Positions 11,954 to 39,632 of a DNA stretch of 64,000 nucleotides are shown here, in pieces. A program made the translations under genes and the position numbers. Origin of the DNA: a virus; the IMG/VR virus record IMGVR_UViG_3300046474_000239, positions 1 to 64,000 of that record. One strand, 5' to 3'. Under the pieces are notes generated by a model. The model had not been told where the DNA came from, ran no database searches, and was given only the letters and a program-made list of their open reading frames with translations. The stretch's first letter is position 1, and each line of letters opens with the position of its first letter.

Positions 11954-13879
11954 ATGGCCGCACCACTGAAGATCCCTGCCCGCCGTCAGCAGTATCTGAT
12001 GGAGCAGGTCGACGAGATCGCGAGCGGCCTGGGCAACCAGCAGTTCGGTGAGATGTACAAGGCAGCCGTGGGCAACATGCTTCGGGGTGACGACACCCTG
12101 TTCAAGTTCATGTCTGCCCTGGAGCGTGTGCCGGTCGACATCGAAACCTTCCTGGACGGCGAGGAGTTCCTGGGCGCAACTGACTTGGTGATGTGGCCCG
12201 CCGTACGCCAGGCAGTCATCGACGCCAACAAGAACTGGTGGAGGGGCACCAAGGACCCGGAGAACGGCGCCTACGATACCGTGTGCCTGATGGGCTGCAC
12301 CCGTTCCGGTAAGACGACCCAAGCCATGATCGGCACCGCCTACCACCTGTACATCCTGACCTGCATGAAGAACCCGCAGACCTGGTACGGCCTGCCCTCG
12401 GCTACGTCCATCGTGTTCCCGATCATCGGTGCCAAGCCGCACGTAACGAAGAAGGTGGTCTACGCGCCGCTGCGCAAGCTGATCGAGCGGATGCCGTACT
12501 TCCAGACCACCGGCCTGCCGGACAAGAACATCGACTCGGAAATGTACTTCGTGGAGAAGAACATCCGCGTCGTGCCCGTGGGCGGTAGCGAAGATTCGAT
12601 CCTCGGTGAAGCAACCATCGGCGGCCTGATCGACGAGATCAACTTCATGAACGTGGTGCAGAAGTCGAAGAAGGCTGAAGTGTCCACCGGGCGGAGCGGC
12701 GTGTACGACCAGGCAGCCATGGTGTACGACACATTCACCCGTCGTCGTCGCGGTACGTTCGCCAAGAAGTTCCCGCAGATTGGTTTGATCTATGCCTCGT
12801 CGTCGACCCGGTACAAGGGCGACTTCACTGACAAGCTGAAGGCAGAGACCGAGAAGTACGACCACAAGAACGTCTACATCTTCAACAAGCGCCAGTTCGA
12901 TGTGCAGCCGAAGGAGAACTACTGCGGTGAGACCTTCCGCCTGTTGATCGGTAACGACGTGCAACACGACACCCGCGTGCTGAAGGATGACGAAGAGGTG
13001 GTCGTAGGCGCCTGGGTGGAAGACGTACCTATCGAGTACCTCCAGGACTTCCAGCGTAAGCCATACGACGCGATGCGCGACGTGCTGGGCCTGTCGTCCA
13101 ACGTGATCAGCCCGTTCATCAAGACCCGCTACAAGATCTACGAGTGCGTGGAGTACGGCCAGGAGCTTCAGCTCGAATCGTTCCTGCTGAAGGACCATGT
13201 GATCCTCGGCGTCGACGGCATGCCCCAGGTGCAGTCGAAACACTACTGCATGAACCCATCACGCCCGCGCTACGTTCACATCGACTTGTCGCAAACAGGG
13301 GACCGGTGTGGCATTGCCATGGTGCGTTTCGACGGTATGATTTCAATACGCCGCAACGGGGACATGACAGAGATGCTCCCGCTCGGGGCGGTAGAGATGG
13401 CTTGCTCGATTGAGCCGGACGCAAACAACGAGATCGACATTGCCGAGGTACGAAGTTTCGTACGCAGTCTGATGAAGACCTACGGCTACCCGATCAAGGG
13501 CGTGTCCTACGACGGCTTTGACAGCCGCGAGTCCATCCAGCAGTGGCGCAAGGATCGGATGCCTTCCAAGGTCATCTCGATGGACCGAACCAGCGGACCC
13601 TACAAGCAGTTCCGGGATGCGCTGTACGACCGACGCATTGCGCTCCTTGATGACCCTGACACCGTGAGCGAGATCCTCGACCTGGAGTACGACGAGTCGA
13701 AAGACAAAGTCGACCACACCATGATCGGGCGGAAGGACGTGTCGGATGCCATCTGCGGTGCGTACACCAACATGCTGGAACGTCGCAGCACCTGGGCGAA
13801 CGTGACGGATGATATGACCGATGACAACACTATCGGTCGCCACGATGACGAGCGTAACGACGACGTTCGTCCTACATAG
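11954..13879 (+). CDS. Terminase large subunit
   Basis: Walker A GCTRSGKTT, Walker B GGLIDE, coupling motif ASS, RNase H-like HIDLS...D, SYD, KDVSDA. Confidence 0.9.
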   Translation: MAAPLKIPARRQQYLMEQVDEIASGLGNQQFGEMYKAAVGNMLRGDDTLFKFMSALERVPVDIETFLDGEEFLGATDLVMWPAVRQAVIDANKNWWRGTKDPENGAYDTVCLMGCTRSGKTTQAMIGTAYHLYILTCMKNPQTWYGLPSATSIVFPIIGAKPHVTKKVVYAPLRKLIERMPYFQTTGLPDKNIDSEMYFVEKNIRVVPVGGSEDSILGEATIGGLIDEINFMNVVQKSKKAEVSTGRSGVYDQAAMVYDTFTRRRRGTFAKKFPQIGLIYASSSTRYKGDFTDKLKAETEKYDHKNVYIFNKRQFDVQPKENYCGETFRLLIGNDVQHDTRVLKDDEEVVVGAWVEDVPIEYLQDFQRKPYDAMRDVLGLSSNVISPFIKTRYKIYECVEYGQELQLESFLLKDHVILGVDGMPQVQSKHYCMNPSRPRYVHIDLSQTGDRCGIAMVRFDGMISIRRNGDMTEMLPLGAVEMACSIEPDANNEIDIAEVRSFVRSLMKTYGYPIKGVSYDGFDSRESIQQWRKDRMPSKVISMDRTSGPYKQFRDALYDRRIALLDDPDTVSEILDLEYDESKDKVDHTMIGRKDVSDAICGAYTNMLERRSTWANVTDDMTDDNTIGRHDDERNDDVRPT

Positions 13880-21782: not shown

Positions 21783-22229
21783 ATGGCCATTGTTGAACTG
21801 TTCACGGACGGTGCCCGCAAGGGCGACAAGGTAGGCGGGTGGGGTTGCCTCATCCGCTATGGCAAACACATCAAGGAGATCTTCGGCGGGGAGCTGGACA
21901 CCACCAACAACCGGATGGAGATGATGGGAGTGATCGAGGGCCTGCGTGCCCTGACCCGCAACGGCCTGAAGGTACACATCGTCACCGACAGCCAGTACGT
22001 CATCAAGGGCATCACGGAATGGATGGACGGGTGGGTCCGCAGGAAGTGGAAGACCCTGGAGGGAGAGGACGTAAAGAACAAGGACCTATGGCTGGACCTG
22101 GTGGATGAGATCGAAGCCCACGAGGAGGTCACCTGGCAATGGGTCAAGGGACACAAGGGGCACCCGGAGAACGAGAGAGCTGACGCCCTGGCCAACCTGG
22201 GAGTAATCAAAGCCCGCAAAGAACAGTAG
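21783..22229 (+). CDS. rnhA: Ribonuclease HI
   Basis: FTDGA, GGWG, TTNNRME, TDSQYV, VKNKDLW, WVKGH.G..ENERAD. Confidence 0.96.
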   Translation: MAIVELFTDGARKGDKVGGWGCLIRYGKHIKEIFGGELDTTNNRMEMMGVIEGLRALTRNGLKVHIVTDSQYVIKGITEWMDGWVRRKWKTLEGEDVKNKDLWLDLVDEIEAHEEVTWQWVKGHKGHPENERADALANLGVIKARKEQ

Positions 22230-28080: not shown

Positions 28081-28355
28081 CCTGTGTGGGCATGCGCGTT
28101 CCCCTATCTACTCCTGTGTGGGCACGCGCTTTCCCCTACTAGATTTACTCCAGTGTGGGCATGTGGTTTCCCCAACTACGAATCCGCTGGTGTCCAGCGC
28201 CAGGCCCGTGGCCCCGGTGTCCATGCCGGTGCTCCTGCCACTGATGATCGGGCTAGTGTCAGCGCTGCTGGTGTCCCGACCGGTGGTCATCCCGCTGGTG
28301 TCTATTAGTGCCAACACCTCTGAAGAGCCCGGTGTAGAGCCTCCGGTGTCACCCC
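28081..28355. repeat. Three tandem ~33-bp GTGTGGGCA-core repeats followed by GCTGGTGTC/CCGGTGT repeats
   Basis: Copies at 28081, 28111 and 28148; short repeats 28186-28351. Confidence 0.8.
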
Positions 28356-35844: not shown

Positions 35845-37039
35845 CAAACCATTCTTTCAACGTCGCAAATTGAGACACGCCTCGGTGACATTTACAGCAC
35901 CGCGTACATCACCAAGCCCACCAGTGCCGAGTTGCACGAGCGCCTGAATAACTTCCTGGCGGAGTTGTGCGAACGCACGCCGGGCGGTCGTCGTCGTTAC
36001 AGCGTGGAAACAATCGGATACGCCCGTGGTTATGCCCGTGCCCTGGACAACCAAATCATGCGCGAGCAAGTGGAGTTTGTTTACCGCTCTTTGCACAGCG
36101 GGTATATCTATTCGACTCACAAGCAAAGCACCCACAAGTCCACTGAAGAGTTCTACGAGAAGGGCGAGGGTGCATTGTTGGGCGAGATGGAAGCCGCGCA
36201 CGTATGGAAAGGCACCGACAAACCGTTTACCCCGTGGAGCGTACCAAACCAGGACATGCGCGACCGCCAGGCTGTGGCATTGGCTAAGTCGGATTCCCGT
36301 TATAGCGTCCAGAGTTACGGCCTGGCGTTTAATGGCAAGGGCTGGGCCTTCCTGTGGCTCGATAAGGTTATGGGAAGCGCGGACACCGAAGCGGCGGCCT
36401 GGCTTCTGGCGGCAAAGCATAAGGCAGAACGTGACGCCAGTTTGAGCGACCCGGTAGCGCAAGGCTGGAAACCCACCAACGCCGAAACCCTGGCGGAGGT
36501 TCAACGTGTCGTCGCTGCTATCGGGCGGGACACCCTGGTCGCTGATGTTTATGATGAGCGCTCACAGGTATCAGATGCCCTGGCCCGTGTACCAGGCTTT
36601 GAATACCCGGACTGGTCACACCTGACAATGGGCGAGGCGGAGACCCGTGCTCGCAAGATCCTGGGGGGCGATAATGGCAAAGGCTAAGAAGCGGGTAAAC
36701 ATTGATCGTGTGGAGCCGGGCGGTAATGTCGTCCGGTACATGACTGGAGTAGAAGAGGAGAACGCACACCGAATCATCCGTGACGTGAATCAAAGGGAAG
36801 GGGAGTTGGTCATATCCTCTGTACCGTACAAGCGCTAGACTAGGATCCACACAAACCAGCAAAGGAGTTACCAGGATGAAAGCGATAACACTCGTGGCAC
36901 GTAAACTGATGCTAGCCATTTACGGGCGGCCAGTTGAACCAACGGCAGAAGAGAAGGAGAAGGAGCAGAAGGAATACGAGCGAGTGTTGTCTATCCTCTA
37001 GACCTCGTGCAATCAATTGCACCGACTCACCCATTAATC

Positions 37040-37071
37040 GCCCTGGCTTAATCGCCGGGGCTTTCTCGTTT
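37040..37071 (+). terminator. Probable terminator closing the early array
   Basis: GCCCTGGC-ttaatc-GCCGGGGC then TTTCTCGTTT. Confidence 0.6.
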
Positions 37072-37975
37072 CGGGCGGAGCAGATACCAGGATCCTCTAT
37101 AGGGAACAATCCACTATCACCAGGTACACACGCCAGGATAAAACGGGCGGACACTCTACACACACCTATAGACAATCCCACTAGGGAACATAGAACACAC
37201 CAGGACCATAGCAAAGGTTTAGACGGGCGGATCCTGTAGAGTTTCGGGCGGACCAATATGCAATACCCTATAGACAATAACCATAGAGAGAATCATATAG
37301 AGATAAACAGTGTAGAGAACCGATCTAGTGTTTCATTCTCTATCAGTGTTTTCCCAGTGAACTATTTCCCGCAAAAATTCTCTGGTGATTCAAGTTCAAT
37401 TCATCGGTGTCTATCCGTGTCTAGTGCTGCTGGTGCTTGGGTTAGTGTCTACGTCACGCTAACTGGTGCTGCTGTACGCTGCTGTCATGCTAATGCAGGC
37501 CCGTTTGTGTTATCAGCAGTAGTGGTGGAGTTAATGTTCTCTCTATAGGGGATAAATGACATCGACCGCCCGTAAACCCTGGGTACATGTTTATTCTCTC
37601 TATAGGGAGCAAGTGACATCCCGCCCGTGTTTATTGGTTCTGTGTGGGCATGCCGCATTCATAACTGGTCACTGCTGGTGTTTCCTCTCTATAGGGCGTA
37701 ACTGGTATCCGCCCGTGCAATTGATTGCACTGGTGTGGGCATGTGACGCTTACTACTGTCGTCACTGCTGGTGTGGGCACCTGGTTTATACAACTGGTGA
37801 GTGGTGGTGGTCATGCGCGTTTCATGACTGCTGCTGGTGACGCAACTGGTGCTGGTGTCATAACTGGTGCAACTGGTGTCACTGCTGCTGGTGTCATGAG
37901 TGGTGGTGGAATTCTCTCTATAGGGCTGTGGTGGTATTCCGCCTGTGAAACCTGTGCCTGTGTGGGCATGTGCTA
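37072..37975. repeat. Non-coding locus of inverted bipartite repeats around an AT-rich core (candidate origin or packaging site)
   Basis: Four TCTCTATAGGG-N12-15-CCGCCYGT units (37537, 37594, 37683, 37912) and three reverse units (37072, 37143, 37245). Confidence 0.7.
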
Positions 37976-38158
37976 TTTACTACTGAAGTCACTGCTGCTG
38001 TAGTTGTCCTGGCGCCGTGCAATTGATTGCACCGACCTGGATCCGTGTTACACCGCTCCGAAGCACGTCAAATGCGTGCCAGAATCGAGCTGAAGCACGG
38101 CAAATACGTGCCAGATACACCCCGGATCCGCGCCTATATAGAAGGGCTTCGAAACCGC

Positions 38159-38215
38159 ACCGTTTGTCGGCTCCGACCAAATCAGGTTTGCAGGTTCGCC
38201 AGCACCGTCTAAAGT
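38159..38215 (+). promoter_or_regulatory. Operator-like inverted repeat plus promoter, copy 1
   Basis: ACCGTTTGTCGGCTCCGACCAAA, then TTTGCA-N17-TAAAGT. Confidence 0.6.
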
Positions 38216-39536
38216 TACCAATACCGAAACACAAACCACACACAAGGAATACCGACATGACCACCATTCAGATGTTCACCGGCATTGCAGTAATGGCTAT
38301 GATCGTTTTCGCAATGGCCTACGCAGCTTGGAACAACTAACAGTTAACCGCAGCCCACGTCACCCATAAGGGGATCGAATCATGAACGCAGTAGCTCACT
38401 ACCTCGTATACTCGAAAAACACCGGCTTCATTGTTGCGAAGTTCACAACCGAGGCGGGAGCTATAGAGTACTGCGCAAACAACGCCGGAACCCGTTGGAC
38501 CTATCACCGCACCGATAAAGCCGTGCCATACGGCTGCTAATCCAATCAATCGCCACACGTTACCCATAAGGGGACAGATCATGACCACAGTAAACACTCC
38601 CGAAGGCATATCGTATTTTCGTTTCGCCTCACTCAAAGGCCAACTCAAACTTGAGTCGGTAGGCCTGAAAAGTTCTAGCGGCGCACTCCGCCCACAACTT
38701 GCGAAAGAGTTCGGCCTTAAACCCCGCGCACCACACGCCGACTACATCGCCTATTGCATTGCGCGCATGAATGAATTGATCCCGCGCCAAGTTGTATAAT
38801 GCAATTGATTGCACGGGGCGGAAACGCCCCACACCCAAACTAGTAGAGTGACCATCATGTCTAATGCACCTTATGACAAAGTTGACGCGGCCTATATCTT
38901 TATCGGGTTGCACGCTTCTTATACTAACGCGGCCAATGAGGAGGAGAGCGACAACGGACCTATTGCGCAGTTGATTGAACACCACAGCGGAGAATGCCAT
39001 TTAATGGCTTTCATGTTCGAGACTTCCATTGCCGCAAGTAAGGCGATTAGTTCAATAGTTGACTTTGACCGGGCGGACCTCGGGATGTTCGCCTATGACC
39101 ATCTCGACAACGCAGAGCCGGGAAGCCTGATCTATGCCCTATGGTCGGCGTGCGTACTTGAGCAGAAGGACCCCGCAGGCGTAGTTAAAGCGTGGGTTGA
39201 TGCAATGGGCTGGCCTACGATAGTCAAAGGGCGGGAAGTAGTTCAAGTAGTAGACTCCCCGGTAGTTAGTATTCAGATTCAAACCGTCCAGATTCAACCA
39301 CGCGACCAAACCGGCGACGATGCGCAGGTAGTAGCTAGCACTAGCCCCAATGCAACCCATTGGTCTGTATATACGCGCAGTACCGAAGGGCGGGCGCAAT
39401 GGGTTGCGGATTTTGCCGTATTGCCCGGCGATACCGGACAGGCCCGCACCGCCGCGCAGATGCTTGCGGACAAGCTTGCAGCACAGTACGGGGTATTTAT
39501 CGAAGCCATTAAGTAGAACGCCCCGCACGCACGTTT

Positions 39537-39557
39537 AAGGCCCTTCGGGGCCTTTTT
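39537..39557 (+). terminator. Intrinsic terminator
   Basis: AAGGCCC-TTCG-GGGCCTT then TTT. Confidence 0.85.
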
Positions 39558-39565
39558 CGTTTATG

Positions 39566-39632
39566 ACCGTTTGTCGGCTCCGATCAAAATAGTTAGATTC
39601 TGGTTTGCAGGATTTGTGATAGCAACTATTCT
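39566..39632 (+). promoter_or_regulatory. Operator-like inverted repeat plus promoter, copy 2
   Basis: ACCGTTTGTCGGCTCCGATCAAA, then TTTGCA-N17-TATTCT. Confidence 0.6.

Follow-up and report, generated by a model that had tools for sequence, protein, structure and literature searches.

In phages such as P1, SPP1 and lambda, the DNA end that is packaged first is defined by a cut at a unique site, in which clusters of short repeats flank a region of cleavage or bending. The pac site of P1 contains 4 + 3 hexamers, SPP1 uses pacL and pacR boxes, and lambda cos is arranged as cosQ-cosN-cosB. Here, we describe a locus of similar design in an uncultured phage, in which two arms of short repeat units enclose an AT-rich core within a gap free of credible genes. 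The window, i.e., the whole stretch of DNA that was analysed, comprises bases 1-64000 of the 104,448-bp IMG/VR virus record IMGVR_UViG_3300046474_000239, and the complete ~104-kb record is referred to as the genome. Its closest cultured relatives are the Samunavirus siphophages of Pseudomonas aeruginosa SM1, PaMx31, UF_RH6, PA_L9 and FBPa45, with which it shares the gene order and a DNA polymerase that is 64% identical to theirs. Unlike the P1, SPP1 and lambda sites, the present locus extends over ~900 bp, lies far from the terminase genes and consists of bipartite units that are inverted between the arms, and cleavage is here suggested by the start of a relative's record. At a probability of about 0.4, we read the gap as a packaging or terminus control locus, that is a concatemer junction or a pac-type site, with Chi-like motifs close to the DNA ends.

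Polar words that accumulate on one strand are known from the phages LLS and MD8. In the Escherichia coli phage LLS, 20 of 23 Chi sites are in the active orientation, in the P. aeruginosa phage MD8 the word GCTGGCGC occurs 32:0, the sites are clustered at the RecBCD-open end, and Chi acts when the strand that carries it has its 3' end where RecBCD enters (PMC12315714). The heptamer CGGGCGG, which is part of every unit of the locus described here, resembles these words in its strong single-strand orientation and excess throughout the genome (115 copies on the plus and 8 on the minus strand), in its clustering by what would be the RecBCD-open end and in its orientation relative to the putative packaging site. 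It differs from the words of LLS and MD8 in that it is no known Chi, is denser (1 per 0.9 kb) and is physically coupled to boxes at ~21 bp; moreover, a small inverted set of heptamers would guard the other end here, and the phage encodes its own RecA, so that it does not lack a recombination module. Repeated units next to the most meltable DNA are also characteristic of origins composed of iterons and a DNA-unwinding element, such as lambda ori in gene O, and of viral origins in which inverted initiator sites enclose an AT-rich centre. In contrast to iteron origins, the initiator gene is not adjacent to the present locus and has its own candidate origin, and the units carry a genome-wide polar word.

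The gap (37002-38258, ~1.25 kb) is bordered by the last credible upstream open reading frame (ORF), which stops at 37001, and by the first ORF with a ribosome-binding site, which begins at 38259; no protein family was assigned to the flanking ORFs. Coding potential of ORFs within the gap was rejected, as they have no protein-level counterpart in the corresponding SM1 locus and the matches traverse stop codons. The pattern CTATAG-N14-20-CCGCCYG has seven matches in the window, every one of them in the gap, while shuffled sequences yield 0.04 +/- 0.2. The anatomy of the locus can be read directly from the following features:

36717-37251, plus strand: densest plus-strand CGGGCGG cluster, 6 copies in 540 bp (scan statistic p = 0.03)
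37007-37022, no strand: 16-bp palindrome GTGCAATCAATTGCAC, left boundary
37040-37070, plus strand: terminator-like GC hairpin and T-run by which the upstream transcription unit is closed; in SM1, too, a terminator comes after the palindrome
37072-37276, minus strand: left arm, A/C-rich on the plus strand, with three bipartite units and an extra CGGGCGG at 37224
37072-37102, 37144-37171 and 37245-37273, minus strand: left units of the CTATAG-N14-20-CCGCCYG pattern
37255-37405, no strand: AT-rich core, least stable duplex of the 104-kb genome
37537-37946, plus strand: right arm, G/T-rich, with four TCTCTATAGGG-N13-17-CCGCC(C/T)G units and boxes at 37540, 37597, 37686 and 37915
37543-37572, 37600-37627, 37689-37715 and 37918-37945, plus strand: right units of the CTATAG-N14-20-CCGCCYG pattern
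37641-37997, plus strand: block TGTGGGCA(TG)-N11-ACTG-N4-6-CTGCTG in four copies, starting at 37643, 37734, 37772 and 37961
37715-37730, no strand: 16-bp palindrome, TG form, abutting unit R3
37827-37909, plus strand: tandem 18-nt CTGGTG/CTGCTG repeats, with a similar array in SM1
38017-38032, no strand: 16-bp palindrome, TG form, right boundary; flanked by cgacctgg, as is the family member at genome position 89432
38060-38258, plus strand: leader of the first downstream gene, with twin 24-nt hairpin repeats, a box-like CCTATATAG at 38133 and the motif ACCGTTTGTCGGCTCCGACCAAA
38060-38083 and 38092-38115, plus strand: the twin tandem 24-nt repeats GAAGCACG-N-CGTGCCAGA, each forming a 5-6 bp hairpin

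In every unit the box is located on the core-proximal side and the heptamer CGGGCGG lies 20.5-24.5 bp farther out (centre to centre). All CGGGCGG copies of the left arm are found on the plus strand with the TATAG box facing the core, and those of the right arm on the minus strand (37566, 37621 and 37709, with a copy containing 1 mismatch at 37939), so that the heptamer points toward the core from both sides. As would be expected for a packaging or terminus site, the locus is unique: CTATAGGG and the bipartite pattern are found only in the gap, the former across the entire 104-kb genome. The core between the arms has the lowest duplex stability genome-wide in windows of 60, 100, 150 and 300 bp (~5.5 SD below the mean at 100 bp), its GC content dips to 41.5%, and the AT skew changes sign, from +0.38 to values of -0.23 to -0.36. 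A mirror axis is located near 37328, where box-like elements and CACCAG words change strand; TCTCTATAG-like boxes in the core are minus-oriented at 37281, 37295 and 37310 and plus-oriented at 37337. The first-pass annotation, which had been made from the sequence letters, had described a gene-free gap of ~1.2 kb, four right and three reverse left units and an AT-rich core with a switch in composition, and all of this is borne out. It had overlooked the fourth left-side CGGGCGG at 37224 and the genome-wide polarity of the heptamer. Beyond the units, the word GCTGGTG is concentrated in the right arm, which holds 6 of the 9 plus-strand copies of the genome; the other three are found within 110 bp at 28186-28294.

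A counterpart of the locus exists in SM1 at 71,560-72,310, a stretch that is unannotated and non-coding and that includes SM1's own least stable duplex. It shares the layout in the order palindrome, terminator, inverted TATAG boxes, AT core, G/T-rich CTGGTG arm and plus-oriented boxes. The SM1 locus opens with its own palindrome TGCAAGCGCTTGCA followed by the terminator, its left arm contains CGGGGGCCC and inverted TATA(T/C)AG boxes, and its AT core has ...GCAGCAAAAATT where the present phage has ...CCCGCAAAAATT (block 37346-37379, homologous to SM1 71850-71883). The G/T-rich arm of SM1 displays CTGGTG repeats, TGTGTGGGCATGTG...TACTACTG, three plus-oriented CTCCTATATAGGG boxes and TGTGTGGGCATGTGATATGTACTACTG, which corresponds to the best conserved element, the TGTGGGCA block of the present phage (85% identity over 40 nt, E 1e-8). 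Within SM1, CTATATAGG is restricted to this locus, and across five Samunavirus records the locus is 97.6-100% identical. Judged by these comparisons, the locus is real and, because it is conserved between the present phage and the Samunavirus phages, also functional. Its homology to the unannotated SM1/Samunavirus locus, as aligned here, is new: in the literature nothing was found on the locus, and for the termini of PaMx31-type phages two PhageTerm statements were all that was found. A blastn search of the gap against 50,697 phage records gave no match, because the SM1 homology blocks are too short; the homology surfaced by way of duplex stability. A pattern search with the conserved block matched SM1 solely, and one with the unit pattern returned 5 chance matches only. 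Searches with three flanking proteins in IMG/VR and with one in metagenomes yielded no usable relative carrying the gap, and an Atlas search with the 298-aa protein upstream of the gap was uninformative. Another SM1 gap of 1.4 kb at 53.4-54.9 kb holds putative tRNA-type T-arm motifs and was rejected as a counterpart.

The position of the DNA end is borrowed from FBPa45, the locus of which is ~98% identical to that of SM1. Base 1 of the FBPa45 record (ON857939.1) coincides with that of box R2, CTCCTATATAGGGCG, and the record closes with ...CTACTGATGCT, the sequence directly upstream of this box. According to the FBPa45 paper, genome starts were set with PhageTerm, and its Table S3 lists a 2576x coverage and the PhageTerm class 'New' (PMC10889362); PhageTerm outputs genomes that are reorganised by their termini (PMC5557969). 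The chance that a record starts inside a 0.8-kb locus of a 93-kb genome is <1%, before the exact box edge is counted. On this evidence from a relative we tentatively favor a terminus or pac site over a replication origin. The first-pass annotation had left the choice between these two: the single experimental hint, the FBPa45 start at a box, favors the terminus side, and the origin side is weakened by the low-stability island in the O-like gene described below.

The most unusual element is the polar heptamer together with its hard-wiring into the locus. Its statistics and its orientation are observed: 104-107 copies of CGGGCGG lie in genes, compared with 13.4 +/- 3.7 in codon-order shuffles and 16.6-16.8 in synonymous-codon shuffles, and this excess (z = 21-25 versus codon shuffles) is the top value of all 7-mers. 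To our knowledge, it belongs to the strongest strand-specific word excesses of phages. The copies are distributed over the three reading frames (46, 33 and 28), the gaps between them are Poisson-like, and neither a regular spacing nor an extended context was found, the one exception being that A is weakly favored as the next base (47/115). An 88% identical IMG/VR fragment (G001), which spans the genome from 89.8 kb to 21.5 kb and leaves the gap outside its coverage, carries 37 forward and 2 reverse copies. In the 35-kb alignment with this fragment, 29/40 and 29/34 CGGGCGG copies are conserved compared with 51% of all 7-mers (p = 0.007 and 5e-5), and from this difference the heptamer is evidently under selection at the DNA level. 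The densest plus-strand cluster adjoins the core from the left, and the right-arm units hold 3 of the 8 minus-strand copies of the genome within 160 bp (p = 0.00045), besides the copy with 1 mismatch. SM1 has no excess of CGGGCGG (14:12) and no comparable polar word, and in the literature nothing was found on CGGGCGG in phages. A Chi word need not be over-represented in the genome of its host. Among 301 evenly sampled Pseudomonadota genomes, CGGGCGG was not over-represented, with a maximum ratio of ~1.6 to the reversed-word control. Known Chi words are not enriched in the phage genome either (E. coli GCTGGTGG 0:8; Pseudomonas GCTGGCGC 6:8, the latter being the P. syringae word taken from PMC5959072). 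A host Chi or KOPS as explanation of CGGGCGG is thus unsupported by the Pseudomonadota genomes, by SM1 and by the known Chi words. In the SM1 genome, the E. coli Chi GCTGGTGG has two plus-strand copies, and both belong to the G/T-rich arm of the counterpart locus (L018:22042-22075 and 22138-22150), one of them 5 nt past box R1.

How could such a locus operate? In the mechanism that we propose, the upstream operon would end at the terminator, and an AT-rich core that is readily melted or bent would lie between the two arms of opposite polarity, each arm having 3-4 units with the locus-unique TATAG(GG) box nearest the core and CGGGCGG outward with its 3' side toward the core. The terminase, or another site-specific nuclease, would recognise the boxes and the conserved TGTGGGCATG block and cut the DNA at the box edge that faces the core. 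Of the two products, the right-hand one, in which small early-type genes lead, may be the end that is packaged and injected. Each new end would then bear CGGGCGG within ~30 bp, carried by the strand whose 3' end is formed by the cut, the minus-strand copies serving the left end in the right arm and the plus-strand copies serving any right end. The heptamer would most likely act as a Chi-like attenuating or recombination signal for some helicase-nuclease, because its orientation matches that in which Chi stops RecBCD-type nucleases. A cut at the box edge in combination with a Chi-like heptamer would account for the fixed coupling to the boxes and for the mirror-symmetric layout, and also for the heptamer being inverted in the right arm and keeping one orientation elsewhere. 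In this scheme, the involvement of the terminase, the direction of packaging and the Chi-like action are what we infer. A farther-reaching proposal, which we hold to be somewhat unlikely, is that CGGGCGG is a new polar DNA signal, either of the Chi type or a guide for a translocase, which a helicase-nuclease of the host or the phage would read and which would be hard-wired ~21 bp from the boxes on both sides of the locus so that every DNA end is born protected.

Several observations weigh against a packaging or terminus locus with Chi-like motifs. The locus is ~25 kb away from the putative large terminase (TerL) gene (11954-13879), which itself was assigned by a weak PHROG match and has no PDB relative in a sequence search, and no small terminase subunit (TerS) was identified in the phage genome. 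Mirror-symmetric repeats around the least stable duplex are also the classical appearance of a bidirectional origin. The DNA end position comes from one relative's record and a single methods line; the FBPa45 library was tagmentation-based, and the class 'New', which stands for significant peaks outside the standard classes, is ambiguous. The authors of UF_RH6 report a circularly permuted prediction. CGGGCGG is, as stated above, neither a known Chi nor over-represented in the sampled Pseudomonadota, and the phage has a RecA of its own (bacterial type, PF00154, E 1e-50, encoded along with an SF2 helicase), unlike the Chi-rich lambdoid class. Finally, SM1 keeps the locus without the polar word, and the heptamer is therefore an added layer outside the core mechanism.

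With this locus, the Samunavirus-type phages, including candidates for P. aeruginosa therapy, gain a defined and so far unannotated cis-acting element that is directly testable in the cultured phages SM1, PaMx31, PA_L9, UF_RH6 and FBPa45. If the terminus reading is true, genome ends and packaging direction would be fixed for the whole group and the disagreeing PhageTerm calls would be explained. Since the heptamer is coupled to the locus by fixed spacing and orientation, it could become possible to find a new Chi-like signal, and to learn about host nucleases, from sequence only. If the heptamer is such a polar signal, the locus would reveal the termini of an uncultured phage and, at the same time, the recognition sequence of a host enzyme that processes DNA ends; if it is not Chi-like, an unexplained genome-wide code would still need its reader.

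Among the other explanations, a bidirectional replication origin, in which the units would be initiator-binding iterons flanking a DNA-unwinding element, is unlikely but ranks highest. As at iteron origins, repeated units, here seven, adjoin the genome's least stable duplex, the homologous core has the same property in SM1, the repeats are mirror-symmetric, the local skew is of the sign that diverging leading strands would leave, and the locus is conserved across the group. In this explanation the CTG-rich G/T strands of the arms would be zones of primase start, from which primers are extended through the core. Among the proteins of the phage are an O-like protein, a DnaB-type helicase, a primase and PolA, but the replication genes are ~40 kb away, no cognate initiator is adjacent (O-like gene at 94.9-96.3 kb), and in both phages the O-like gene has, at a matching place within it, a low-stability island of its own. 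The island of SM1 (L017:29300-29560) contains the 17-nt direct repeat TCCAAAATTTGGCACAC in two perfect copies that are 22 nt apart, with AT-rich hairpins after them; that of the present phage (genome 95.0-95.6 kb) displays a G-run, several TACAT repeats and a hairpin, AGAGGTAT-TACA-TACCTCT, while no clear iterons were seen inside the O-like gene of this phage. The island is a candidate for a lambda-type origin inside the initiator gene, and the origin explanation of the gap is weakened because this island with its repeats is present in both phages. Neither the PhageTerm-set start of FBPa45 exactly at a box nor the heptamers aimed at the core from both sides would follow from an origin. The FBPa45 start would likewise be left unexplained by an early promoter or regulatory array, which we consider more doubtful still and in which the TATAG(GG) boxes would be promoters or factor-bound -10-like elements firing outward in both directions or, read oppositely, convergent promoters opening the core. 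The four right-arm boxes do aim at the small downstream genes, the last SM1 box is 50 nt upstream of gp091 with another one directly ahead of gp092, and the spacing of 15-19 nt from CGGGCGG to TATAGA resembles that of -35 and -10 elements. The genome is also nearly devoid of canonical sigma-70 promoters: sites with >=10/12 consensus positions number only 4 on the plus strand, none of them preceding early genes. The sigma-70 scan of the gap itself, on the other hand, was blank, which speaks against the promoter array. With T7-group promoters the boxes have the string CTATAGGGAG(A) in common, whereas the upstream part from -17 to -12 is not conserved. The match of TTCTCTCTATAGGGAG to 13/16 positions of the T7 phi10 promoter from -11 to +5 is a lead rather than a test, and SM1 TATAGGGAGACCA is identical to this promoter over 13 nt. 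T7-type promoters would come with a cognate polymerase and with copies before several transcription units. PF00940 (T7-type RNA polymerase) had no match in six frames, a weak negative since the control failed to register, and no RNA polymerase family was detected among the large ORFs. Outside 37.07-37.95 kb the only box is a degenerate copy at 38133, so that other operons are not preceded by boxes, and the left-arm units would produce antisense transcription into late genes.

The orientation of CGGGCGG itself gives rise to an explanation that we judge improbable, in which the heptamer steers a DNA translocase (KOPS/FtsK-like) or arrests forks (Ter-like) at the core, making the locus a replication terminus or a site of concatemer processing and not the start of packaging. 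The plus-strand copies all run clockwise and the right arm is the sole deliberate inversion, so that the polarity meets at 37251-37566; the centres of the palindromes described below switch at the locus (Fisher p = 0.003, with breakpoints picked post hoc), and about half a turn of the circular map separates the locus from the O-like gene. However, no dif-like sequence was noticed on reading the core, where no pattern search was run, the cumulative GC/AT skews along the genome reveal no replichore structure, SM1 has the locus without any polar word, and phages are not known to possess such a system. Serine and tyrosine recombinases (PF00239, PF00589) are absent from the genome in a search that detected its positive controls, which likewise leaves a site-specific recombination site (attP, invertible segment, lox/dif-like) without a cognate recombinase. 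Least probable by far is a gene for a non-coding RNA, such as the Rsm/Csr sponge that the first-pass annotation had considered for the GGA-rich left arm on account of what are several (A/C)CAGGA motifs. No Rfam family, RsmY/RsmZ included, matches the gap at E <= 1, there are no tRNA genes in it, both arms fold no better than shuffles (z 0.06 for the left arm, -1.3 and -0.7), and the conservation with SM1 lies in short DNA blocks and not in helices. A structured or Rsm-sponge RNA was rejected on the blank Rfam search and these fold values.

As to the wider genome, all credible genes lie on the plus strand. IMG/VR lists a 127-bp 'direct terminal repeat' (DTR) for the contig, which falls within a 446-codon open frame running across the assembly junction (103.6 kb to 0.48 kb); the N-terminal part of this frame is globular and is followed by long acidic/basic PEEEPE/RRG repeats. 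Because of its location inside this frame, the DTR is an assembly overlap and uninformative on the real genome ends. An overlap of 127 bp is the usual mark of a circular SPAdes contig.

The 16-mers at 37007, 37715 and 38017, which had been assigned to the locus in the earlier annotation, are present but not locus-specific: they belong to a palindrome family GTGCAAT-CA/TG-ATTGCAC with ~33 genome copies at <=1 mismatch, e.g., at window positions 745, 16471, 26747, 32715, 40756, 52270 and 60807. Many copies lie 5-12 nt ahead of a ribosome-binding site. By the form of the asymmetric centre, the copies fall into two domains: between 92.8 kb and, across the contig junction, 37.0 kb, 12/13 are of the CA form, and between 37.7 and 89.4 kb, 11/18 are of the TG form. 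The switch points of these domains, to which the post hoc Fisher test mentioned above refers, are the gap locus itself and ~89.4-92.8 kb. SM1 has a counterpart family of different sequence, TGCAARCGYTTGCA, with ~31 copies. Because of this counterpart, the palindrome array is a conserved trait of the group, the sequence of which has co-varied, presumably with its binding protein.

The twin 24-nt hairpin repeats follow the palindrome at the right boundary and precede the first downstream gene. The leader motif ACCGTTTGTCGGCTCCGACCAAA of this gene is found again near 39560 and near 89478, and in the form (ACCGTTTGT)CGGCTCCGAYCAAA it precedes three transcription units, at 38160-38185, 39555-39580 and genome position 89470-89495. 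The copy at 89.4 kb is itself preceded by a terminator, a promoter-like site TTGATT-16-TATTAT and a palindrome that is placed like an operator.

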